The notes under the pieces are model-generated. The model did no database searches. It saw only the letters and a program-made list of their open reading frames with translations, and was not told the DNA's origin. DNA of 23,852 nt from a virus (taxonomy: Duplodnaviria; Heunggongvirae; Uroviricota; Caudoviricetes): IMG/VR virus record IMGVR_UViG_2585427740_000001; one strand, 5' to 3'. The translations under genes were made by a program, and so were the position numbers. Positions 6,862-23,852 of the stretch are shown piece after piece. How positions within the stretch are numbered: position 1 is the first letter of the stretch; each line of letters starts with the position of its first letter.

Positions 6862-7306
6862 GCTGCCACCTTCTGCTCAGTGGCTTTCTGTTTCAGGAAT
6901 CCAAGAGCTTTCACTGCTTCGGCCTGTGTCAGTTCTGACGATGCGCGAATGTCGCGGCGAAATATCTGGGAACAGAGCGGCAATAAGTCGTCATCCCATG
7001 TTTTGTCCAGGGCAATCAGCAGAGTGTTAATCTCCTGCATGGTTTCATCGTTAACCGGAGTAATGTCGCGTTCCGGCTGACGTTCTGCGGTGTATGCGGT
7101 ATTTTCGACAATGCGCTCGGCTTCATCCTTGTCATAGATACCAGCAAATCCGAAGGCCAGACGGGCACACTGAATCATGGCTTTATGCCGTAACATCCGT
7201 TTGGGATGCGACTGCCACGGCCCCGTAATTTCTCTGCCTTCGCGGGTTTTGAATGGTTCGCGGCGGCATTCATCCATCCATTCGGTAACGCAGATCGGAT
7301 GATTAC
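6858..7306 (-). pseudogene. bet: bet (Red-beta), 5'-truncated: only the C-terminal ~145 codons remain
   Basis: Translation from ...NHPICVTEWMDECRREPFKTREGREITGPWQSHPKRMLRH... to the C-terminus matches lambda Bet as recalled. The N-terminal ~115 codons are absent and the frame runs into ren-derived sequence on the opposite strand. Confidence 0.88.
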
Positions 7307-10020: not shown

Positions 10021-10379
10021 ATACCTACAGCATCACATTACCCTGGCCTCCGAGCAATAATCGCTATTACCGCCATAATCGCGGGCGCACACACATCAGC
10101 GCAGAAGGGCAGGCATACCGCGATAACGTCACCCGAATCATTAAAAACGCAATGCTGGATATCGGCCTGGCTATGCCAGTGAAAATCCGTATTGAGTGCC
10201 ACATGCCGGATCGCCGTCGCCGTGACCTGGATAATCTGCAAAAAGCCGCTTTTGACGCACTCACCAAAGCAGGTTTCTGGCTGGATGATGCTCAGGTCGT
10301 TGATTACCGCGTTGTGAAGATGCCTGTTACCAAAGGTGGGAGGCTGGAACTGACCATCACCGAAATGGGGAATGAATGA
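10017..10379 (+). CDS. rusA: RusA Holliday-junction resolvase
   Basis: 120-aa translation ([26 protein letters not shown]...) matches RusA as recalled. Confidence 0.95.
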
Positions 10380-10601: not shown

Positions 10602-10985
10602 ATGCGTGATATTCAGATGGTTCTTGAGCGTTGGGGAGCGTGGGCGGCTAATAATCATGAAGATGTGACCTGGTCGTCCATTGCCGCCGGTTTTAAGGGA
10701 TTAATTACTTCAAAAGTAAAATCTCGCCCGCAATGTTGTGACGATGACGCGATGATCATTTGCGGGTGCATGGCCCGTCTGAAAAAGAACAACAGCGATT
10801 TGCACGATTTATTAGTAGATTATTATGTAGTCGGTATGACATTCATGTCACTGGCAGGTAAGCATTGCTGCTCTGATGGTTATATCGGGAAAAGGTTACA
10901 GAAGGCTGAGGGTATAATTGAAGGGATGTTAATGGCATTAGATATCCGGTTAGAGATGGATATCGTTGTTAATAACTCTAATTAA
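10602..10985 (+). CDS. Q: Late-gene antiterminator Q (QuuD-like, phage 82/21 type)
   Basis: 127 aa from ATG 10602 with GGAG RBS ([24 protein letters not shown]...). Matches DLP12 QuuD as recalled. Confidence 0.9.
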
Positions 10986-11173: not shown

Positions 11174-12256
11174 TTAGAACTGGTAAACCATACCTACAGC
11201 AACGATATCATCGGTAGCAACGCCAGATGCTTTCGTGAAATCGCTCTTATCAATCAGGTTGATTTTGTAATCAACAAAAGTGGACATATTTTTGTTGAAG
11301 TAATAGGTTGCACCTACATCAATATATTCAACCAGGTCCTGATCACCCCACGCACCCAAGTCTTTTCCTTTAGATTGCAGGTAAGCAACGGACGGACGCA
11401 GACCGAAGTCGAACTGATATTGTGCAACTACTTCGAAGTTTTGTGCTTTGTTGGCAATATGGTTATTACCAAAAACAGTCATGTTCTGGGTTTCAGAATA
11501 GGTGGTAGCCAGATAGATGTTGTTCGCATCATATTTCAGACCAGCTGCCCATACTTCAGCATTTTGACCAGATGCATTCAGGCTGTTGTTACCGTAGATA
11601 ACCTGATTATTAGTGCGGTCAGATTTAGCATAGGTTGCACCTACACCGAATCCTTCATACTCATAAGTAGTGGAGAAACCGAAACCATCACCATTAGCTT
11701 CAGTTACGTCAGTGCGGTCATTTTTACCCTGATACTGAGCAGCAAAGTTCAGACCATCAACCAGACCAAAGAAGTCATTGTTACGATAAGTTGCAACACC
11801 TGTGGTGCGACCAGTCATGAATACATCTGTTTGGGTCCAGGTATCGCCACCGAATTCTGGCAGAACGTCGGTCCATGCACCAATATCGTATGCTACACCG
11901 TAGTTACGGCCATAATCGATGGAGCCGTAGTCACCGAATTTCAGGCCAGCGAAGGCAAGACGGGTTTTATCTTTGGAGGAACCTTGAGATTCAGCGCGGT
12001 TGCCTTTGAATTCATATTCCCACTGACCGAAACCAGTCAGTTGATCGTTGATTTGGGTTTCACCTTTGAAGCCAAGACGGGCATAAGTAGTATCACCATC
12101 ATCTGCATCATTAGAGGAGAAGTAGTGCTTAGCATTAACTTTCCCGTACAGATCCAGCTTGTTACTGTCTTTATTATAAATTTCAGCTGCCTGAGCAGAC
12201 ATCGCCATCAGTACTGATGCAGCTACAGCAGAAATTGCCACTGTTAATTTTTTCAT
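11174..12256 (-). CDS. nmpC: General porin of the OmpC/OmpF/NmpC(Lc) family
   Basis: 360 aa from [23 protein letters not shown] (signal peptide) to the C-terminal ...VGMVYQF. Resembles NmpC/Lc as recalled. The ORF-track ORF extends 20 codons further upstream, judged spurious. Confidence 0.92.
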
Positions 12257-12682
12257 CGTGAGCCCTTTTTTTGAACTATTATTAAAAAATGATGTCACTG
12301 CGCGATAAATATTCATCTAATCAATGTGATTATTTCAAGATGTAAGTTTTGGTTTCTCATTTGATTTGTGAAGTAGATCTCTATTTTTATCTGAACTTTT
12401 TCTATCGAATCCTATTCATGGCTCTTGGCTGAATAAAAATAAATCTATTAGCCAATTTATATTAATGGCTGTTATTTATAAGTGCTCTATAATTTGAAGA
12501 TTCAATTTAAACCAGCTAAAAATAACGCTGGAAATTATTTGTTGGTTATTTGTTGAGATTTGCTTATGTATTTGTAGTGGTGTTTTCAATACTCGGTAGC
12601 ATTCTCGCAAATATCATTTAGTGGTTTACGTACGTAAAAAATTGGTTATGCTGTTAAGAGTGGTTACTTCGTCACACAGCTT

Positions 12683-12716
12683 AAACCCGCCGTCGAGCGG
12701 GTTTTTCCATTTTTTG
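12683..12716 (+). terminator. Intrinsic terminator-like hairpin (AAACCCGC-CGTCGA-GCGGGTTT) followed by TTCCATTTTTT
   Basis: Perfect 8-bp GC-rich stem and T-tract read directly. Lies in the AT-rich region between the porin start and S. Confidence 0.5.
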
Positions 12717-12843
12717 AGTCTCGATATTAGCTGATAACCCAATACCTGAGTTATTCACTGACTCCGAGTCTGTTACGTTTCTGCTTTTTTGCGATACGTT
12801 GTATTCCCTCAATTTACACCCGCTTTGTCTGCGAGGTGGGGTT

Positions 12844-13059
12844 ATGAAATCCATGGATAAGTTAACAACGGGTGTCGCCTATGGCACCTCAGCAGGTAGT
12901 GCCGGTTACTGGTTTTTACAGCTGCTCGATAAAGTCACGCCCTCACAGTGGGCAGCAATAGGTGTGCTGGGTAGCCTGGTATTTGGCCTGCTGACGTACC
13001 TGACAAACCTTTATTTCAAGATTAAAGAAGATAAGCGCAAGGCTGCGAGAGGTGAATAA
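12844..13059 (+). CDS. S: Class II holin (phage 21 S-type pinholin) with dual-start motif MKSMDK
   Basis: Translation [71 protein letters not shown] resembles S21 as recalled. Two Met codons three codons apart; two TM segments. Confidence 0.9.
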
Positions 13060-13556
13060 TGCCTCCATCATTACGAAAAGCCGTTGCTGCTGCTATTGGT
13101 GGCGGAGCAATTGCTATAGCATCAGTGTTAATTACTGGCCCAAGTGGTAACGATGGTCTGGAAGGTGTCAGCTACGTACCATACAAAGATATCGTTGGCG
13201 TATGGACTGTATGTCACGGACACACCGGAAAAGACATCATGCTCGGTAAAACGTATACCAAAGCAGAATGCAAAGCACTCTTGAATAAAGACCTTGCCAC
13301 TGTCGCCAGACAAATTAACCCGTACATCAAAGTCGATATACCGGAAACAACGCGCGGCGCTCTTTACTCATTCGTTTACAACGTGGGTGCTGGCAATTTC
13401 AGAACATCGACGCTTCTTCGCAAAATAAACCAGGGCGATATCAAAGGCGCATGTGATCAGCTACGTCGCTGGACATATGCTGGCGGTAAGCAATGGAAAG
13501 GTCTCATGACTCGTCGTGAGATTGAGCGTGAAATCTGTTTGTGGGGTCAGCAATGA
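13059..13556 (+). CDS. R: SAR endolysin (T4-lysozyme-like muramidase with N-terminal signal-anchor-release domain)
   Basis: 165 aa with a Gly/Ala-rich weakly hydrophobic N-terminus ([20 protein letters not shown]) followed by a lysozyme-like core. Start overlaps the holin stop. Confidence 0.92.
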
Positions 13557-14014
13557 ACAGAGTAACCGCGATTATCTCCGCTCTGGTTATCTGCATCATC
13601 GTCTACCTGTCATGGGCTGTTAATCATTACCGTGATAACGCCATTACCTACAAAGCCCAGCGCGACAAAAATGCCAGAGAACTGAAGCTGGCGAACGCGG
13701 CAATTACTGACATGCAGATGCGTCAGCGTGATGTTGCTGCGCTCGATGCAAAATACACGAAGGAGTTAGCTGATGCGAAAGCTGAAAATGATGCTCTGCG
13801 TGATGATGTTGCCGCTGGTCGTCGTCGGTTGCACATCAAAGCAGTCTGTCAGTCAGTGCGTGAAGCCACCACCGCCTCCGGCGTGGATAATGCAGCCTCC
13901 CCCCGACTGGCAGACACCGCTGAACGGGATTATTTCACCCTCAGAGAGAGGCTGATCACTATGCAAAAACAACTGGAAGGAACCCAGAAGTATATTAATG
14001 AGCAGTGCAGATAG
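13553..14014 (+). CDS. Rz: Rz inner-membrane spanin subunit
   Basis: 153 aa, N-terminal TM then coiled coil. ATG overlaps the R stop (ATGA). Confidence 0.85.
13773..13955 (+). CDS. Rz1: Rz1 outer-membrane lipoprotein spanin subunit, embedded in the +1 frame of Rz
   Basis: 60 aa with lipobox VVGCTS and proline-rich segment (PPPPPAW...PPPDW). AGGAG RBS 8 nt upstream. Lies entirely inside Rz. Confidence 0.8.
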
Positions 14015-14045
14015 AGTTGCCCATATCGATGGGCAACTCATGCAA

Positions 14046-14339
14046 TTATTGTGAGCAATACACACGCGCTTCCAGCGGAGTATAAATGCCTAAAGTAATA
14101 AAACCGAGCAATCCATTTACGAATGTTTGCTGGGTTTCTGTTTTAACAACATTTTCTGCGCCGCCACAAATTTTGGCTGCATCGACAGTTTTCTTCTGCC
14201 CAATTCCAGAAACGAAGAAATGATGGGTGATGGTTTCCTTTGGTGCTACTGCTGCCGGTTTGTTTTGAACAGTAAACGTCTGTTGAGCACATCCTGTAAT
14301 AAGCAGGGCCAGCGCAGTAGCGAGTAGCATTTTTTTCAT
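14046..14339 (-). CDS. bor: Bor lipoprotein (serum-resistance-associated)
   Basis: 97-aa translation MKKMLLATALALLITGCAQQTFTVQNKPAAVAPKETITHHFFVSGIGQKK... matches lambda Bor as recalled. Confidence 0.92.
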   Translation of the reverse strand: MKKMLLATALALLITGCAQQTFTVQNKPAAVAPKETITHHFFVSGIGQKKTVDAAKICGGAENVVKTETQQTFVNGLLGFITLGIYTPLEARVYCSQ

Positions 14340-14629: not shown

Positions 14630-15040
14630 TTAGCGTGGAAAGATTTGTGTAGTGTTCTGAATGCTCTCAGTAAATAGTAATGAATTATCAAAGGTATAGT
14701 AATATCTTTTATGTTCATGGATATTTGTAACCCATCGGAAAACTCCTGCTTTAGCAAGATTTTCCCTGTATTGCTGAAATGTGATTTCTCTTGATTTCAA
14801 CCTATCATAGGACGTTTCTATAAGATGCGTGTTTCTTGAGAATTTAACATTTACAACCTTTTTAAGTCCTTTTATTAACACGGTGTTATCGTTTTCTAAC
14901 ACGATGTGAATATTATCTGTGGCTAGATAGTAAATATAATGTGAGACGTTGTGACGTTTTAGTTCAGAATAAAACAATTCACAGTTTAAATCTTTTCGCA
15001 CTTGATCGAATATTTCTTTAAAAATGGCAACCTGAGCCAT
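14630..15040 (-). CDS. ybcV: YbcV-family protein (DUF1398)
   Basis: 136 aa from [24 protein letters not shown]... matching DLP12 YbcV as recalled. The ORF-track ORF extends to 15163; the upstream 41 codons are judged non-coding. Confidence 0.8.
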
Positions 15041-15325
15041 TGGTAAAACCTTCCATGTGATACGAGGGCGCGTAGTTTGCATTATCGTTTTTATCGTTTC
15101 AATCTGGTCTGACCTCTTTGTGTTTTGTTGATGATTTATGTCAAATATTAGGAATGTTTTCACTTAATAGTATTGGTTGCGTAACAAAGTGCGGTCCTGC
15201 TGGCATTCTGGAGGGAAATACAACCGACAGATGTATGTAAGGCCAACGTGCTCAAATCTTCATACAGAAAGATTTGAAGTAATATTTTAACCGCTAGATG
15301 AAGAGCAAGCGCATGGAGCGACAAA

Positions 15326-15891: not shown

Positions 15892-16059
15892 GAGGTTGCC
15901 CCGTATTCAGTGTCGCTGATTTGTATTGTCTGAAGTTGTTTTTACGTTAAGTTGATGCAGATCAATTAATACGATACCTGCGTCATAATTGATTATTTGA
16001 CGTGGTTTGATGGCGTAGATGCACGTTGTGACATGTAGATGATAATTATTATCATTTTT

Positions 16060-16279
16060 CGGGTCCTTTCCGGCGATCCGACAGGTTACGGGGCGGCGAC
16101 CTCGCGGGTTTTCGCTATTTATGAAAATTTTCCGGTTTAAGGCGTTTCCGTTCTTCTTCGTCATAACTTAATGTTTTTATTTAAAATACCCTCTGAAAAG
16201 AAAGGAAGCGACAGGTGCTGAAAGCGAGCTTTTTGGCCTCTGTCGTTTCCTTTCTCTGTTTTTGTCCGTGGAATGAACA
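16060..16279. other. cos: cos site: cosN with 12-nt cohesive end GGGCGGCGACCT at 16091-16102, followed by cosB (terminase small-subunit binding region) up to the nu1 start
   Basis: Sequence ...CGACAGGTTACG GGGCGGCGACCT CGCGGGTTTTCGCTATTTATGAAAATTTTCCGGTTTAAGGCG... matches the recalled lambda genome ends joined at cos. Confidence 0.88.
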
Positions 16280-16795
16280 ATGGAAGTCAACAAAAAGCAG
16301 CTGGCTGACATTTTCGGTGCGAGTATCCGTACCATTCAGAACTGGCAGGAACAGGGAATGCCCGTTCTGCGAGGCGGTGGCAAGGGTAATGAGGTGCTTT
16401 ATGACTCTGCCGCCGTCATAAAATGGTATGCCGAAAGGGATGCTGAAATTGAGAACGAAAAGCTGCGCCGGGAGGTTGAAGAACTGCGGCAGGCCAGCGA
16501 GGCAGATCTCCAGCCAGGGACTATTGAGTACGAACGCCATCGACTTACGCGTGCGCAGGCCGACGCACAGGAACTGAAGAATGCCAGAGACTCCGCTGAA
16601 GTGGTGGAAACCGCATTCTGTACTTTCGTGTTGTCGCGGATCGCAGGTGAAATTGCCAGTATTCTCGACGGGATCCCCCTGTCGGTGCAGCGGCGTTTTC
16701 CGGAACTGGAAAACCGACATGTTGATTTCCTGAAACGGGATATCATCAAAGCCATGAACAAAGCAGCCGCGCTGGATGAACTGATACCGTTATGA
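16280..16795 (+). CDS. nu1: Terminase small subunit Nu1, C-terminally altered (171 aa; the last ~10 residues of lambda Nu1 are replaced by a single L and a stop)
   Basis: Translation MEVNKKQLADIFGASIRTIQNWQEQGMPVLRGGGKGNEVLYDSAAVIKWYAERD... matches lambda Nu1 through ...AALDELIP, then diverges at about 16789. Confidence 0.9.
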   Translation: MEVNKKQLADIFGASIRTIQNWQEQGMPVLRGGGKGNEVLYDSAAVIKWYAERDAEIENEKLRREVEELRQASEADLQPGTIEYERHRLTRAQADAQELKNARDSAEVVETAFCTFVLSRIAGEIASILDGIPLSVQRRFPELENRHVDFLKRDIIKAMNKAAALDELIPL

Positions 16796-16817
16796 GTTTA
16801 CGGATACGCTGGGGCTG

Positions 16818-17222
16818 GTGACGTCATTCAGCTATGCAGGAGACAAGAATCGCCAGCTGACCCATTACAGCGATACCCGCTGGCATGAAGATTCCGTTCG
16901 TAACCGCTGGTTCAGCGTAATGGCGGGGCCGTCTGTGCGCGTGAATGAATGGTTCAGCGCGTATGCGATGGCGGGTGTGGCTTACAGCCGTGTGTCGACT
17001 TTCTCCGGGGATTATCTCCGCGTAACTGACAACAAGGGGAAAACGCACGACGTGCTGACCGGAAGTGATGACGGTCGCCACAGCAACACGTCTCTGGCGT
17101 GGGGAGCTGGCGTGCAGTTTAACCCGACCGAATCCGTGGCCATTGATATTGCTTATGAAGGCTCCGGCAGTGGCGACTGGCGCACTGACGGTTTCATCGT
17201 GGGTGTCGGTTATAAGTTCTGA
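16818..17222 (+). pseudogene. lom: lom (Ail/Lom/PagC-family outer-membrane protein), 3' fragment lacking signal peptide and proper start
   Basis: C-terminal ...SVMAGP...AYAMAGVA...IAYEGSGSGDWRTDGFIVGVGYKF matches the lambda Lom C-terminus as recalled. Upstream sequence is nu1; no ATG or signal peptide. Confidence 0.85.
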
Positions 17223-17250
17223 TTAGCCAGGTAACACAGTGTTATGACAG

Positions 17251-17276
17251 CCCGCCGGTTCAGGCGGGCTTTTTTG
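17251..17276 (+). terminator. Rho-independent terminator (GCCCGCC-GGTTCAG-GCGGGC followed by TTTTTT)
   Basis: Perfect GC-rich hairpin plus T6, read directly. Immediately downstream of the lom fragment. Confidence 0.85.
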
Positions 17277-17286
17277 TGGGGTGAAT

Positions 17287-20250
17287 ATGGCAGTAAAGAT
17301 TTCAGGTGTACTGAAAGACGGCACAGGAAAACCGGTACAGAACTGCACAATCCAGCTGAAAGCAAAACGTAACAGCACCGCGGTGGTGGTGAACACGCTG
17401 GCCTCAGAAAATCCGGATGAAGCCGGGCGTTACAGCATGGACGTTGAGTACGGTCAGTACAGCGTTATTCTGTTGGTGGAAGGATTCCCGCCGTCACATG
17501 CCGGGACCATCACCGTGTATGAAGATTCCCGACCCGGTACGCTGAATGATTTTCTCGGTGCCATGACGGAGGATGATGCCCGTCCGGAGGCTCTGCGCCG
17601 TTTTGAACTGATGGTGGAAGAGGTGGCGCGTAACGCGTCCGCAGTGGCACAGAACACGGCAGCCGCGAAGAAGTCAGCCAGTGATGCCAGCACATCTGCC
17701 AGTGAGGCGGCAACTCATACAACCGATGCTGCAGGCTCAGCTCGTGCCGCCAGCACGTCAGCCGGACAGGCTGCATCATCTGCTCAGTCAGCATCTTCCA
17801 GCGCAGGAACGGCATCAACAAAGGCCAGTGAAGCATCGAAAAGTGCTGCTGCTGCAGAGTCCTCAAAAAGCGCGGCAGCTACCAGTGCCGCTGCGGCGAA
17901 AACGTCAGAAACGAATGCGGCAGCGTCACAACAATCAGCAGCCACTTCTGCATCCGCCGCGACCACGAAGGCGTCAGAAGCTGCCACCTCAGCCCGGGAT
18001 GCGGCGGCCTCAAAAGAGGCGGCAAAATCATCAGAAACGAGCGCAGCCTCGAGCGCCAGTAGTGCAGCCTCCTCGGCAACAGCGGCAGGAAATTCCGCGA
18101 AGGCGGCAAAAACGTCCGAGACGAACGCTAAGTCTTCTGAGACGGCAGCAGCACAGAGTGCCTCCGCAGCAGCAGACTCAAAAACAGCGGCTGCCTCATC
18201 TGCCAGCGCCGCGTCAACAAATGCCGGGCAGGCCTCAGCCAGTGCCACCGCTGCCGGAAAGTCGGCAGAAAGCGCCGCATCATCCGCTTCAACAGCCACA
18301 ACGAAGGCTGGCGAAGCCACTGAACAGGCCACGGCAGCAGCGAGGTCAGCTTCCGCAGCGAAGACATCCGAAACGAACGCGAAAGCGTCGGAAACCAGCG
18401 CAGAATCCTCAAAAACGGCTGCCGCATCGTCAGCCAGTTCGGCGGCGTCATCGGCATCATCGGCGTCTGCTTCAAAAGATGAGGCGACCAGACAGGCGTC
18501 AGCAGCGAAGGGCAGCGCCACGACGGCATCCACGAAGGCGACAGAGGCAGCTGGCAGTGCGACGGCGGCAGCTCAGAGCAAAAGTACGGCGGAATCCGCG
18601 GCAACGCGCGCCGAGACAGCAGCAAAACGGGCAGAGGATATTGCATCCGCCGTGGCGCTTGAGGATGCGAGCACGACGAAAAAGGGGATAGTACAGCTCA
18701 GCAGTGCGACTAACAGCACTTCCGAGTCACTGGCGGCAACGCCAAAAGCCGTTAAGGCCGCGTATGAGCTGGCTAACGGGAAATACACCGCACAGGATGC
18801 AACGACAGCACAGAAAGGGATAGTTCAGCTTAGCAACGCGACCAACAGCACATCTGAAATGCTGGCGGCAACGCCAAAGTCGGTAAAGGCAGCCTATGAC
18901 CTTGCTAACGGGAAATATACTGCTCAGGACGCTACGACAGCACAAAAAGGAATTGTCCAGCTCAGTAGTGCAACCAACAGCGCATCTGAAACGCTTGCCG
19001 CGACACCGAAAGCAGTGAAAGCAGCTAATGATAATGCGAATGGTCGGGTACCTTCTGCCCGTAAGGTGAATGGTAAGGCGCTTTCAGCGGATATAACACT
19101 GACGCCGAAAGATATTGGTACGCTTAACTCAACAACAATGTCATTCAGCGGTGGTGCTGGTTGGTTCAAATTAGCAACGGTAACCATGCCACAGGCGAGT
19201 TCTGTTGTTTCAATTACGTTGATTGGTGGCGCGGGATTTAACGTGGGGTCACCTCAACAGGCAGGTATATCTGAACTTGTTTTGCGTGCAGGTAATGGTA
19301 ATCCGAAGGGGATTACTGGTGCTTTATGGCAGCGCACATCGACAGGGTTTACAAATTTTGCCTGGGTCAATACATCTGGTGATACTTACGATATTTACGT
19401 TGCAATCGGAAATTATGCGACTGGTGTAAATATTCAATGGGATTATACCAGTAATGCCAGCGTGACGATTCATACGTCACCAGCATATTCTGCTAATAAG
19501 CCGGAAGGGTTAACGGACGGTACAGTTTATTCACTCTATACGCCATCAGAGCAGTTTTATCCGCCTGGCGCACCAATCCCGTGGCCATCAGATACCGTTC
19601 CGTCTGGCTATGCCCTGATGCAGGGGCAGACTTTTGACAAATCTGCATACCCGAAACTTGCAGCCGCTTATCCGTCAGCCGTGATCCCTGATATGCGTGG
19701 CTGGACGATTAAGGGCAACCCCGCCAGTGGTCGTGCCGTATTGTCTCAGGAACAGGACGGCATTAAATCGCACACCCACAGCGCCAGCGCATCCAGTACG
19801 GATTTGGGGACGAAAAACACATCGTCGTTTGATTACGGAACCAAATCCACGAATAACACCGGGGCGCATACCCATAGTATTAGCGGGACTGCAAATAGTG
19901 CCGGTGCGCACCAACACAAGAGTTCCGGTGCATTTGGTGGCACGAACACGAGCATTTTCCCTAATGGTTATACCGCGATTTCAAATCTAAGCGCGGGGAT
20001 TATGAGCACAACAAGCGGTAGTGGCCAGACTCGTAATGCAGGGAAGACATCATCAGATGGTGCTCATACCCACTCGCTGTCCGGCACTGCTGCAAGCGCA
20101 GGCGCACATGCACATACTGTCGGTATTGGTGCTCATACGCACTCCGTTGCGATTGGCTCACACGGACACACCATCACCGTTAACGCTGCTGGTAACGCGG
20201 AAAACACCGTCAAAAACATCGCATTTAACTATATTGTGAGGCTTGCATAA
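17287..20250 (+). CDS. stf: Side tail fibre protein Stf (about 987 aa from ATG 17287), with long Ala/Ser/Thr-rich low-complexity region, three ~43-aa tandem repeats and a His-rich C-terminal domain
   Basis: N-terminus [30 protein letters not shown]... and C-terminus ...[11 protein letters not shown] match lambda Stf as recalled. ORF-track ORF begins 2 codons upstream at GTG. Confidence 0.92.
18673..19050 (+). repeat. Three tandem ~129-132-nt repeats inside stf (unit encodes [19 protein letters not shown](S/M)[12 protein letters not shown](E/D)[11 protein letters not shown])
   Basis: Repeated peptide and nucleotide blocks starting near 18673, 18802 and 18934, read directly. Confidence 0.8.
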
Positions 20251-20831
20251 TGGCATTCAGAATGAGTGAACAACCACGGACCATAAAAATTTATAATCTG
20301 CTGGCCGGAACTAATGAATTTATTGGTGAAGGTGATGCATATATTCCGCCTCATACAGGTCTGCCAGCAAACAGTACCGATATTGCACCGCCAGATATTC
20401 CGGCTGGCTTCGTGGCTGTTTTCAACAGTGATGAGTCATCGTGGCATCTTGTTGAAGACCATCGGGGTAAAACAGTTTATGACGTGGCATCAGGGGACGC
20501 GTTATTTATTTCTGAACTCGGCTCATTACCGGAAAATGTTACCTGGTTATCCCCGGAAGGGGAGTTTCAGAAGTGGAACGGCACAGCCTGGGTGAAGGAT
20601 ACGGAAGCAGAAAAACTGTTCCGGATCCGGGAGGTGGAAGAAACAAAAAACAGCCTGATGCAGGTAGCCAGTGAGCATATAGCGCCGCTTCAGGATGCTG
20701 TGGATCTGGAGATCGCAACGGAGGAAGAAACCTTGTTGCTGGAAGCCTGGAAAAAGTATCGGGTATTGCTGAACCGTGTTGATACGTCAACTGCACAGGA
20801 TATTGAATGGCCAGTAGCACCTATAGGGTAA
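20250..20831 (+). CDS. tfa: Tail fibre assembly chaperone Tfa
   Basis: 193-aa translation [51 protein letters not shown]... matches lambda Tfa as recalled. ATG overlaps the stf stop. Confidence 0.95.
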
Positions 20832-21689
20832 ATTCGTAATGATTACCTAAATACGTTATTCTTTTGTTCAAAAAGTGATTTTGCTATAGATAGGGAGTAT
20901 GTTCTTGGATTAAGAATAAAAATCGCCATGAAAGAGCTTCATGGCGAGTACATAAACGTACAAAATGTGATGAAAGTAGAGTGGCGTAAGCCACTATATT
21001 AAGATGTGACAATAGCGAAGAAAAGTAAATAACATTTTATGGACGTTTAATTGTTAATTATAAAAACTAGAGTGCCCGATATTGTTTACCTTGCTTTAAA
21101 ATAATGTACTCAAACCAAATTTTTGAGCTAAAAGCTCAAATAATATAAATGCAATAATAATGTTTAATAAGACAATTAGCTTGCTTTGTATTTTCATTTC
21201 GGAATACTGTTAAGTAACTTTGATGACCCTAACAATAGATCGGAATTTTCTTAGAGTCAATGGTCACTGTTTTTGCTTGCAAAGCAAATGTTTTGGTGGT
21301 TATAAGTTGTCTTAATATAGTCACGCATGCAACTTGTTCCATGCGGAGATTAAAGATTGGAATATAACGCTAAGATGGAATTAAATTACATTTGCAATAA
21401 TCAATTTATTATTACTCAATAATTACCGATATTATTATTGTAAATTAATCATTAGAGTGCAAAAAGAAATGTAACGGCAAAATAAGAGGACGATAGCTGA
21501 GAAAAAAGCGTGCTTTCCCAATCTGGGGCAAATCACGTCTGAATGACACCTGAAAACAGGTGGTAGCCTCAAGAAGGCTTGGAATATTCTTCTTTAATGT
21601 TATGTAATTCATTGATTTTTCGTGTACGATTTAAAGACATTTATTCCAAGAAAAATTTTTAACTCTTTGATTTTTCGACTCTGTATCAT

Positions 21690-21751
21690 CGGTCTCGAAA
21701 ACCGGAGTAGGGGCAACTCTACCGGGGGTTCAAATCCCCCTCTCTCCGCCA
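21690..21751 (+). other. 3' fragment (~62 nt) of tRNA-Ser(CGA): anticodon stem-loop, variable arm, T-arm and acceptor 3' end with CCA; 5' half absent
   Basis: CGGTCTCGAAAACCGGAGTAGGGGCAACTCTACCGGGGGTTCAAATCCCCCTCTCTCCGCCA matches the recalled 3' portion of E. coli serU-type tRNA-Ser. The preceding sequence cannot form the acceptor/D arms. Confidence 0.75.
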
Positions 21752-22335
21752 CTTTATCAATGACTTATCTCCCGACTTCCCGCCTTGCTTTTCCTAAACA
21801 GAACAATCGTAGAATATTCTTGAAGGGTTAGATCGTCACTGTTTTCTGTTCGATACTGTGACATTCAGCACTTGATTCGCTATGGATCTGACAGGAAGGT
21901 TTTGAGCGAAAATTTGCAGTTATTCAGTCGTTTTCTTATCGGTCACCATTATTCTTTTAGACATTGATCCTACAAAGCTGCCGCAAAGTTGGTGGTGGGA
22001 ACTGAAGTTGCGTAGAGAAGGGGTCAATACCCGGAGGCAAACATGGGCTGGCAAAAGTGTAGCGGTATTAGGCGCAGCTATTTAGCCTAGTTATGTTTTA
22101 TGAAAACTTGATATCATATAAGTGTCTTACTTATTGGCTGTAAATAAGTTTTTCCTAAGGAATTGTTTCTTGAGTATCATTTGTAACTGTAACGGAATTT
22201 ATAATCCTTTGCTTTATTGTTACGGTATTTTTTATCACACCCTATTTTTTATGTGGTTTTTTATACTGAAGTTTGGCAAAGTGAACTTTATATGCATATA
22301 CTTCATCCTGGTTTCAGTTAAGTTGGGTGGATGAT

Positions 22336-23079
22336 ATGGCAACTACATGTTCAGTTATATTGATTTTGGAGTCCTTTGATGTTTATTTCGGAAAAGAGAG
22401 TGTGTTTCTGGAGAGAGGTTCATCTGTACTTGTCGACTCTAGCTCTAGAGATTTTTTCCTGACATATCCTGAAAGAGTGATAGTGGCGGATTTTGGCGCT
22501 GAGTTTATTAGTCGCTATTTGAAAGCTAATAACTTAAGGGATATTTCTGATTGTAGGGAATATCCATCTTATTTAAAAATAAACTTTGCTGACTTCAGTT
22601 TAATTAAAGGATTAATTAGTTGGGCTAATCACTGTGCTGAATACATAGAAATTTTTGATGAGTCTATTGCTTTTACATGTCTCTCTGCATTTTCTTCTGA
22701 AAAACAATTTGGAGTATTTCTGTTTGAATGTTTGAAAAGCACAGGGGCTAAAGTTAAAACGATTATTCATACGGATTTATCTGCACCATGGCGTCTTAAG
22801 GATATATCATCAAGATTATATCTCAGCGAAAGTTTACTAAAGAGGAAATTGAAAGAAGAGGGGGTATCATTCAGTAAGATCATACTTGATGAGAGGATGC
22901 AAATGGCTGAATATTTACTCAGCACTCGTTGTTATCCTATTAGTAAAGTAGCTAAGGTCTGTGGTTATGCCAGTGTCTCATACTTTACTTATGTATTTAG
23001 ACGTTATTTTGGTGTTTCTCCAAGTCAATACTCTCAGAGCAGTTCAGAAAGTAAAATTCTTACTCACCAGGGAATCTGA
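22336..23079 (+). CDS. AraC/XylS-family transcriptional regulator (AppY/EnvY-like), about 247 aa
   Basis: C-terminal AraC-type HTH signature (...WRLKDISSRLYLSESLLKRKLKEEGVSFSKIILDERMQMAEYLL...KVCGYASVSYFTYVFRRYFGVSPSQY). Low-GC gene; in-frame GTG 3 codons upstream is the ORF-track start. Confidence 0.85.
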   Translation: MATTCSVILILESFDVYFGKESVFLERGSSVLVDSSSRDFFLTYPERVIVADFGAEFISRYLKANNLRDISDCREYPSYLKINFADFSLIKGLISWANHCAEYIEIFDESIAFTCLSAFSSEKQFGVFLFECLKSTGAKVKTIIHTDLSAPWRLKDISSRLYLSESLLKRKLKEEGVSFSKIILDERMQMAEYLLSTRCYPISKVAKVCGYASVSYFTYVFRRYFGVSPSQYSQSSSESKILTHQGI

Positions 23080-23590
23080 TCATTGTTCTTGCCCCCTTAT
23101 TTCCAGACAGGGGGTGTATCTTAAGTTAACGTTACCCGCTGACGTCGATATTCTCGCGGAGAGCGATAACCCAACGCACTGTGCGGATGGTTTTCATTGT
23201 AATGTTCGATCGCCACTGCAAGATTATGCAATGCCGTTCTTACATTCGGTTTCGGCATGAACGCGATGTAGTCTTCCTTCATCGTTTTCACGAACCTTTC
23301 TGCCATTCCATTACTCTGAGGACTGCTGATTGCCGTTGTGCAGGGCTCCAGATTCAACTCTCTGGCGAACTGCCATGTTTCATGCGCTCTATACGCTGAA
23401 CCGTTATCTGTCAGCCACTGGATGGACTGTTCCGGTACTTTATCGCCAAAGCGTTTTTCTATCGCTCCTAACATGACATCCTGCACTGTCGCTTTATCGT
23501 AACCTCCCGTGCTTGCGGCCCAGTCTATGGCTTCACGATCGCAACAGTCCAGGGCGAACGTAACACGCAGTTTTGAATCGCCACGGGTTT
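23077..23590 (-). mobile_element. IS2-like (IS3 family) element fragment: terminal region plus 3' part of the transposase orfB
   Basis: Terminal sequence TTGCCCCCTTATTTCCAGACA resembles the recalled IS2 end. The orfB C-terminal translation matches IS2 InsD as recalled (...TVQDVMLGA...WLTDNGS.Y...[12 protein letters not shown]). Confidence 0.7.
23121..23585 (-). pseudogene. IS2-like transposase orfB, C-terminal ~155 codons only (5' part removed)
   Basis: ORF-track ORF 23121-23486 continues open upstream to a TAA at about 23586 (…[34 protein letters not shown]…). No orfA or N-terminal orfB upstream on this strand. Confidence 0.75.
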
Positions 23591-23630
23591 AACAGACACC
23601 TCAGAGTCATTTAAGATGGCTTAAAGAGAG

Positions 23631-23852
23631 GTGCCCATGAGCGGTAAGCGTTATCCCGAAGAGTTTAAAACTGAAGCAGTCAAACAGGTTGTTGATCGCG
23701 GTTATTCTGTTGCCAGCGTTGCAACACGTCTCGATATCACCACCCACAGCCTTTATGCCTGGATAAAGAAGTACGGTCCGGATTACTCCACTTTTTCATC
23801 AAGCCAATCCGCCCACCACTGCATCATTTCTCTGCGCTTATCGAGATACTGA
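23631..23852 (+). CDS. IS3-family transposase OrfA-like HTH protein (N-terminal part typical; C-terminus atypical, possibly disrupted)
   Basis: MSGKRYPEEFKTEAVKQVVDRGYSVASVATRLDITTHSLYAWIKKYGPD resembles IS3-family OrfA HTH domains. RBS AGAGAGGTGCCC-ATG. Opposite orientation to the IS2-like orfB fragment. Confidence 0.6.
   Translation: MPMSGKRYPEEFKTEAVKQVVDRGYSVASVATRLDITTHSLYAWIKKYGPDYSTFSSSQSAHHCIISLRLSRY

Follow-up and report, generated by a model that had tools for sequence, protein, structure and literature searches.

The analyzed window, a 23,852-nucleotide stretch of viral DNA, contains a complete lambda-type cos site at positions 16061–16279, in which cosQ, cosN, I2, and the R3-I1-R2-R1 array are located directly upstream of a truncated Nu1 gene. 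We consider it highly probable that this is the native cos of a lambda-family temperate phage, left over passively in a deletion remnant of the IAI1 prophage type, still competent as judged from its sequence but of limited consequence, and that the remnant is not self-mobilizing.

Comparison of the window with the genome of E. coli PEC1009 revealed 99.97% identity (6 mismatches and 1 gap). According to the PGAP annotation of PEC1009 and the Pfam and PHROGs assignments, the lambdoid remnant sits between ybhC and ybhB/bioA, which is the lambda attachment site. The attL core GCTTTTTTATACTAA was detected at the left end of the element, adjoining ybhC (1331–1345, + strand), as a single exact match (chance expectation, 0), and an attR-like core ACTTTTTTATACTAA was found in PEC1009 approximately 225 bp past the end of the window. 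The element measures ~22.8 kb from attL to attR, with 14.8 kb between attL and cosN and 8.0 kb between cosN and attR. The lambda-type integrase (356 aa) and the excisionase, encoded at 1419–2685 on the minus strand, are both apparently intact; they were assigned by PGAP and by the Pfam Phage_integrase and lambda Int arm-binding domains. The cosQ side of cos contains a cargo and lysis block (11174–14339; Pfam, PGAP) that comprises the porin gene (11174–12256, minus strand; Pfam Porin_1), essD/rrrD/rzpD, and bor (14046–14339, minus strand; Pfam Lambda_Bor).

The complete prophage of strain IAI1, which is apparently the parental type, is colinear with the window and 93–99% identical to it outside two deletions. 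The two share the site between ybhC and bioA, the G118 allele of the R2 repeat, and an AraC-family gene with IS fragments at the right end; however, the immunity and replication genes and the entire block from Nu1 to J are still present in IAI1, whereas the window lacks 6.7 kb between bet and ren and 18.5 kb between Nu1 and lom. Both junctions were located using blastn. At the first one (7293–7304), a bet/recT fragment is fused to a ren fragment, IAI1 position 814551 now adjoining 821203 and the two alignments overlapping by 12 bp; the lost segment contained gam, kil, the immunity region, the O-like and P genes, and ori, and PGAP reported both RecT and Ren as partial at the PEC1009 locus. At the second one (16784–16789), codon 170 of Nu1 runs into the interior of lom, the two meeting at 6 bp of microhomology (ATACCG; IAI1 830005 to 848535), and approximately 18.5 kb was removed, from A through J together with the 5′ part of lom. 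To the right of this junction, on the + strand, the lom fragment (residues 55–199; 16785–17222; Pfam Ail_Lom and tblastn) is followed by the side tail fiber gene stf (17287–20250; Pfam phage_tail_N/Phage_fiber_2/Collar and PGAP) and the tail fiber assembly gene tfa (20250–20831; Pfam Caudo_TAP and PGAP). The features expected of a DLP12/Qin-like cryptic prophage were found, namely att flanks with an integrase, the loss of essential genes (TerL, portal, capsid, tail shaft, repressor, O, and P), and a cos with an adjacent noh gene. The element is an IAI1-type lambda-like prophage that deletions have reduced to ~22.8 kb, inserted between ybhC and bioA.

The truncated Nu1 gene, named nohD by PGAP (16280–16795, + strand), was recognized by Pfam (Phage_Nu1, E = 7.5e-101) and by comparison of translations. 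Its product corresponds to residues 1–170 of the 181 residues of lambda gpNu1, with L132I as the only substitution, followed by Leu and a stop, and the last 11 residues are gone. The retained part is 99% identical to lambda gpNu1 and includes the whole winged-helix DNA-binding domain, while the missing residues presumably belong to the C-terminal region that interacts with gpA. A tblastn search of the window with 20 morphogenesis proteins of IAI1 produced matches solely for Nu1 (residues 1–170) and Lom (residues 55–199); no TerL, portal, capsid, or tail-shaft gene was found in the window, in agreement with how PGAP annotated PEC1009 at this locus (99.97% identity). These results bear out the preliminary description, which had stated that Nu1 was almost full length, that the large terminase subunit and capsid genes were absent, and that nothing in the window could cut or package at cos. 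A replication or packaging gene hidden among the hypothetical ORFs was also considered and rejected, as PHROGs and Pfam revealed none in this set. The PHROG label “head protein” on a ybcV-like ORF is only an inherited name, carried over from the old GeneMark designation of the lambda ORF lambdap78.

The subsites of cos were located by base-by-base alignment with the circularized lambda ends (NC_001416), Turner, PhiR68_2, the IAI1 prophage, and DLP12 of K-12, using the definitions of the Feiss laboratory (PMC4856287, PMC9026076). The 12-nt cohesive-end sequence GGGCGGCGACCT has a single exact occurrence in the window, at 16091–16102 on the + strand. Since the surrounding 890 bp (15900–16789) are 98.5–99.6% identical to lambda and isolated lambda-like phages, a chance match of the 12-mer was excluded. 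It lies within the nicking site cosN (~16086–16107, + strand), a partly symmetric segment of ~22 bp that is identical in lambda, Turner, PhiR68_2, IAI1, and DLP12, and its flanks match lambda 48498–17. The heptamer GGGTCCT of cosQ, the packaging-termination subsite (PMC4856287), is present ~30 bp upstream of the nick (16061–16067, + strand) and is identical to lambda 48473–48479 in the alignment. On the other side of cosN, the bent spacer I2, which is defined as lambda bp 18–50 and required for initiation (PMC4856287), occupies 16108–16140 on the + strand and is identical to that of lambda.

The adjoining cosB (16140–16255, + strand) begins with R3 (16140–16155, + strand; bp 50–65 according to PMC9026076), which is followed by the IHF site I1 on the + strand between R3 and R2; both are identical to their lambda counterparts. 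The inverted R2 (16199–16214) has a G at 16208, corresponding to A118G relative to lambda, and R1 (16240–16255, + strand) is again identical to lambda; R2 and R1 are 16-mers as defined in PMC9026076. All three R sequences are therefore present in the order R3-I1-R2-R1, with R2 inverted and the lambda I2 spacing from cosN, and a de novo repeat search independently returned the R3/R1 direct repeat and the inverted R2. The ATG of Nu1 (16280) is located 24 bp past R1, so the small terminase gene is immediately 3′ of cos. Every property of a lambda-type cos that a sequence can reveal was found in the window cos. The cohesive-end sequence and flanking cosB noted in the preliminary description were recovered as an exact copy of the former and a lambda alignment of every subsite of the latter. 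Its term “intact” applies to the completeness of all subsites, but R2 does carry one transition, which is itself a natural allele of intact-looking prophages.

The window cos has the same subsites as lambda cos, in the same order and with the same spacing, and only three differences were observed in the ~220 bp between cosQ and the start of Nu1: T48486C, delG138, and A118G. The first two also occur in Turner, PhiR68_2, IAI1, and K-12 DLP12 and are ordinary natural variants; delG138 shortens the R2-R1 spacer by 1 bp relative to lambda, as it does in the isolated phages Turner and PhiR68_2. The third, at window position 16208, turns the conserved CGTTTCC core of R2 into CGCTTCC; the affected base corresponds to R3 bp 55. 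G118 was found in none of the 34 phage-isolate records containing this R2-region 47-mer, while it was present in 154 of the 967 matching complete E. coli genome records, a set ascertained on the presence of cos. A scan of IMG/VR for the exact patterns detected G118 in 28 contigs and A118 in at least 120. Among the 17 G118 loci of IMG/VR that were informative, i.e., had enough downstream DNA, 10 had uninterrupted Nu1 (181 aa), TerL (641 aa), and portal genes. The allele is also carried by the IAI1 prophage, which is annotated with all lambda genes from Nu1 through J and with immunity and replication genes, and by HS30-1, where an intact TerL adjoins the G118 cos. The view of A118G as decay private to the remnant was rejected on account of these E. 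coli records, prophages, and viral contigs. Because G118 stands beside intact Nu1, TerL, and portal genes elsewhere, it seems to be a lineage allele, not a product of decay, and provides no argument for a dead site. The preliminary description had listed a point mutation in an R-site repeat as a reason to abandon its proposal; formally, A118G in R2 is such a mutation, but this reason loses its weight given the company in which the allele occurs.

The consequences of a competent cos depend on the direction of packaging and on a second site. During lambda packaging, TerS binds cosB, TerL nicks cosN, and the terminase stays on the cosB end as Complex I. This end is fed into the prohead, the other one, with cosQ, is set free and accessible to nucleases, and termination requires a downstream cosQ and cosN (PMC4856287). 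In window coordinates, the packaging direction is +, through Nu1′, lom′, stf, tfa, the AraC-family gene, attR, ybhB, and bioA. If packaging began at the window cos, the DNA entering the capsid first would be 16785–20831 (+ strand), with the lom fragment, stf, and tfa. The porin and bor genes are on the cosQ side, opposite to the packaging direction; as that side is left out, they would not be carried from this cos. To make the terminal cut, a cos-type terminase depends on a second cos, and tails do not attach when the DNA stays uncut (PMC6687093); lambda has been described as incapable of generalized or lateral transduction (PMC8575938). In PEC1009, no second cosN with up to one mismatch was detected in the 59 kb upstream, and no second cos in the 66 kb downstream. 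The sole match in the latter segment was a 12-mer with one mismatch inside ybiT, ~56.8 kb downstream, which lacks a cosQ and was judged to be a chance occurrence.

The element also lacks the means to multiply. As shown by blastn against IAI1, O, P, and ori have been deleted from it, and therefore no concatemers would arise from the element. Excised by the Int and Xis of a helper, it would be a non-replicating circle of ~22.8 kb with a single cos. Lambda packages cos-to-cos lengths of ~38–51 kb, and its lower packaging limit is ~78% of the genome length; the ~22.8-kb element is under this minimum. The same features separate it from known mobilizable elements. Lambda dgal is defective and devoid of morphogenesis genes, keeps cos, and enters helper capsids to give HFT lysates; it has retained O, P, and ori and replicates when induced, so that concatemers containing cos arise with the aid of a helper in phages of this dgal/dbio type, and its cos-to-cos interval is nearly of genome length. 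The remnant likewise lacks morphogenesis genes and has a cos, yet the bet-to-ren deletion has removed ori, O, and P, its length is only ~22.8 kb, and there is no second cos within the 59 and 66 kb searched on either side. In contrast to the cos of lambda itself, the window copy is single and resides in a chromosome without the A gene, proheads, or a replicon.

Cos-type PICIs such as EcCICFT073, which hijack lambda or phi80 packaging, are similar to the window element in being chromosomal and free of capsid genes and in having a cosQ and cosN that resemble those of lambda-like helpers (PMC6739421, PMC9026076). However, PICIs possess a replication module, a cosB that differs from that of the helper, and Rpp, which redirects the helper TerS, whereas the window has a helper-type cosB and a truncated ordinary Nu1. 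No replication module was found by PGAP, Pfam, and PHROGs on the ORFs examined, and neither a distinct cosB nor Rpp was present. Identity with a PICI or another satellite was rejected on the basis of the lambda-type cosB and the absence of Rpp and a replicon, and the element is not a self-mobilizing satellite.

The window resembles the DLP12 prophage of K-12, in which ybcN, ninE, ybcO, rusA, ylcG, quuD, a porin gene, essD, rrrD, rzpD, bor, ybcV, ybcW, ylcI, cos, a Nu1 homolog, a big deletion, and tail-fiber genes follow one another in the same order. The cosQ and cosN of the two are identical, and the ylcI-cos-nohD layout is shared. However, the window element occupies the lambda attachment site with a lambda-type Int, whereas DLP12 is inserted at its own site. 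DLP12 has a full-length Nu1 and is broken inside A (the aaaD pseudogene), which is joined to the tail-fiber assembly gene, while in the window the break is at Nu1 codon 170 and leads into lom. The cosB of DLP12 carries C53T in R3, and that of the window, with A118G in R2, is closer to lambda. In addition, the porin gene nmpC of DLP12 in K-12 contains IS5, whereas the window porin is uninterrupted. The cos-nohA region of Qin, also in E. coli K-12, is analogous to the cos-nohD region of DLP12.

The similarity to DLP12 points to a route other than packaging. De Paepe et al. grew lambda on a strain with a marked DLP12, with which lambda shares homology covering R/Rz, cos, nu1, and A (PMC3945230). 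Junctions adjoining cos accounted for 10 of the 19 sequenced, which the authors explained by terminase cutting both strands at the cos of lambda, and possibly also at that of DLP12, thereby stimulating recombination on the left (R/Rz) side, the right side being protected by terminase; hybrids with R, Rz, or nu1 of DLP12 were viable (PMC3945230). The cos region of the window has a DLP12-like geometry, and its identity to lambda is even higher. By analogy, recombination at a terminase-cut cos would be the most likely entry route of the bor, lysis, and porin DNA into a helper. A tandem lysogen offers another route. The distance between cos and attP in lambda is ~27.7 kb. If a lambda helper were integrated at the attL of the remnant, the interval from the helper cos to the remnant cos would be ~27.7 + 14.8 = 42.5 kb, which could be packaged and would include porin and bor; such a tandem lysogen would use the cosQ and cosN of the remnant only as a terminator. 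Integration of the helper at attR would give ~28.8 kb, which is too short to package.

In our proposed explanation, two illegitimate deletions, bet to ren and Nu1 to lom, eliminated immunity, replication, and every gene for the head and the tail shaft. By chance, the endpoint of the second one fell 700 bp to the right of cosN, so that cos and most of Nu1 survived. In a cell with a superinfecting or co-resident phage of lambda specificity, the gpNu1 of that phage should, given the identity of the sites, bind cosB, cosN should be nicked, and Complex I should then form on the Nu1 side. Translocation in situ would proceed rightwards through lom′, stf, tfa, attR, and bioA; with no downstream cos, the DNA would never be cut off and only tail-less dead-end heads would result. 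The freed cosQ-side end, with ylcI, ybcV, bor, the lysis genes, and the porin gene, could act as a recombinogenic double-strand end and be copied into the helper via the flanking lambda homology. The window cos would be at best an initiation or termination site for the terminase of another phage.

The distribution of the remnant was explored in 5426 complete genomes, with the lineage defined by the bet′/ren′ junction. This lineage was found in ~18 of them, always at the same chromosomal site. The Nu1/lom junction of the window type occurs in 2 genomes; a second state, without window positions 16641–17530, was found in 14, and a third, without 16327–17210, in 2. All 18 lineage genomes, and hence all three deletion variants, keep cosQ, cosN, and cosB, and the left deletion endpoints are all inside Nu1, of which 47 nt are left in the NCTC9040-type variant and 120 codons in the BR1220 type. 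The remnant is clonal, rare, and still decaying, and such a pattern is at odds with spread by transduction. Other prophages with G118 have decayed independently with cos kept: TerL is frameshifted in 55989 and O104:H4, and in E24377A and APEC O78 it is truncated and fused to tail genes. Further decay variants were found among the viral contigs with G118. Many deletions elsewhere also stop just to the right of cos, those sampled having been ascertained on cos.

A dead cos, in which A118G and the 1-bp shorter R2-R1 spacer abolish terminase binding and leave a sequence fossil, is an unlikely alternative to the passive but competent leftover. The substitution does affect the CGTTTCC core, at the equivalent of R3 bp 55, the first base of the TerS contact region defined by NMR (PMC9026076), and the 34 isolated phages lack G118. 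However, the critical R positions that have been named are the equivalents of bp 56, 58, and 59 (PMC4669245), when a conserved R base pair undergoes a transition, the damage is greatest in R3 and smaller in R2 or R1 (PMC9026076), and termination at the window cos would need no cosB at all (PMC4856287). R3, I1, I2, cosN, and cosQ are unchanged, the shorter spacer occurs in Turner and PhiR68_2, 10 of the 17 informative contigs combine G118 with Nu1, TerL, and portal genes that are all uninterrupted, and IAI1 and HS30-1 combine it with an intact TerL. Identity to lambda and the occurrence of the allele next to intact packaging genes suggest that the site is competent, and a terminase of lambda specificity should recognize it, as the preliminary description had assumed. 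Its further proposal was that a helper packaging at this cos could transduce the porin, bor, and lipoprotein genes at high frequency. The complete cos of lambda specificity, the intact-looking Int and Xis, and the attL, with which a helper could in principle excise the element, speak for it, and lambda transfers a plasmid replicon bearing a cloned lambda cos (PMC6739421). Nevertheless, the transduction of cos plasmids depends on their replicon, which the remnant does not have. The cargo lies on the unpackaged cosQ side; no second cos, which cos terminases need, is present within 59 kb upstream or 66 kb downstream; with O, P, and ori deleted and no replication initiator found, concatemers would not form; ~22.8 kb is below the lower lambda limit of ~78% of the genome length; and ~18 of 5426 genomes at one chromosomal site is not the distribution expected of an often-transduced element. 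Helper mobilization of the cargo is therefore highly unlikely. Of the initial interpretation, the competent cos, the absence of cutting and packaging genes, and the expected recognition by a helper stand, whereas the packaging of the cargo from this cos does not.

Two further readings attribute the retention of cos to selection. According to one of them, cos, with or without the DNA-binding fragment of Nu1, would be a decoy that hinders superinfecting lambda-like phages by terminase titration or by abortive cutting of the chromosome. The three deletion variants that all keep cos with left endpoints inside Nu1 are consistent with this, as is Nu1 1–170 with its whole winged-helix domain and without the extreme C-terminus; the Rpp proteins of PICIs, which resemble TerS DNA-binding domains, can block helper packaging (PMC6739421). 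However, the reduction of Nu1 to 47 nt (NCTC9040 type) and 120 codons (BR1220 type) argues that the protein is not conserved, a single chromosomal cos would be a negligible sink compared with hundreds of replicating phage genomes, and three events are too few to infer selection, the wider survey being ascertained on the presence of cos. We regard a decoy as extremely unlikely. The other reading regards cos as a gene-donation hotspot: incoming lambda-like phages would preferentially sample remnants with a competent cos, the terminase of a helper would cut it, the bor, lysis, and porin side would recombine into the helper and so spread the moron cargo, and remnants bearing cos would persist or spread better. 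The ends of all three lineage deletion variants just inside Nu1, with cos kept, would be a first hint of this reading, and the common endpoints together with the retained cos could hint at selection, with at most three independent events. Such non-accidental retention seems improbable to a high degree. Given no more than three independent events and a wider set ascertained on cos, the retention of cos at the deletion edges was treated as coincidence, and selection for it as a donation hotspot was accorded a similarly small chance.

The passive, competent leftover thus remains our preferred reading, and the window cos is an already known kind of object: it is 98–99% identical to lambda cos, is in a DLP12-like state, and occurs in genomes already in RefSeq. 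Its significance beyond bookkeeping is little, as it adds one more case of defective lambdoid prophages, which commonly keep a usable cos beside a Nu1 remnant. For the annotation of such elements, the lesson is that the DNA mobilizable from a retained cos is determined by the direction of packaging and by the two-cos rule, and here the direction leads away from the cargo. Retained cos sites count mainly as recombination entry points by which active phages acquire genes of the prophage, here an intact porin gene, bor, and lysis genes, and not as handles for packaging the remnant.

The deletion that joins a bet/recT fragment head-to-head with a ren fragment (window 7293-7304) takes out the entire immunity and replication region, and the two blastn alignments that meet here, against the complete lambda-like prophage of strain IAI1, share 12 bp. 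Among 5426 complete E. coli genomes, approximately 18 belong to the clonal lineage marked by this junction. Comparison with the sister genomes revealed further deletions. In the BR1220 type (n = 14), 890 bp are missing between window positions 16640 and 17531 (10640-10641 of the corresponding locus, L010), and in the NCTC9040 type (n = 2) the deletion spans 884 bp between positions 16326 and 17211 (10325-10327 of locus L011); the window type itself is represented by two genomes. Both deletions begin within the truncated Nu1 gene and end in lom', the joined lom interior, or in the 5' part of stf, with microhomology of only 2-3 bp at the junctions. They are nearly equal in size and mutually offset by approximately 315 bp; thus, two independent Nu1-to-lom'/stf deletions are alike in both size and place.

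The late region carries a prophage-borne porin gene annotated as ompC/nmpC-like (11174-12256, minus strand), which is flanked by the Q antiterminator gene on one side and the lysis cassette on the other and is therefore a typical late-region moron. It is an uninterrupted ORF, whereas the copy in the K-12 prophage DLP12, nmpC, is split by IS5. The ybcV-like DUF1398 ORF (14630-15163, minus strand) matched PHROG_413, labeled "head and packaging: head protein." The label goes back to the lambda orf lambdap78, which carries the GeneMark-predicted name "head protein" in NC_001416, and is not to be taken as evidence of a capsid gene. At the right end, between tfa and attR (20832-23852), approximately 1.5 kb without an annotated gene is followed by an AraC-family regulator (22327-23079), accompanied by IS integrase/transposase fragments. 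The complete IAI1 prophage contains the same block, which was therefore carried as cargo by the right end of the parental phage. It recalls appY, which occupies the corresponding end of DLP12.

A 12-mer differing from the cohesive-end sequence at one position, CGGCGGCGACCT, was detected inside ybiT in the near-identical genome PEC1009 (approximately 3054009-3054020; 9010-9021 of L007, the part of that record downstream of cos), in the same orientation as cos and approximately 56.8 kb downstream of it. We judged this second cos candidate to be a chance match, because no cosQ/cosB context was found around it, it lies beyond the headful limit, and the chance expectation is 0.22 per 44 kb.

The window's truncation of Nu1 to residues 1-170, with TerL absent, was also present in two IMG/VR contigs originating from isolate genomes, 2703718828_000008 (L032) and 2585427733_000001 (L040). 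Thus, prophage predictors call the remnant "viral" although all structural genes are absent. In the lambda-like prophage occupying the same site in E. coli 55989 (L014) and O104:H4 2011C-3493 (L016), the large terminase gene is frameshifted beside an otherwise complete arrangement of cos, Nu1, W, and portal; therefore, this att-lambda prophage may represent another helper-dependent state.
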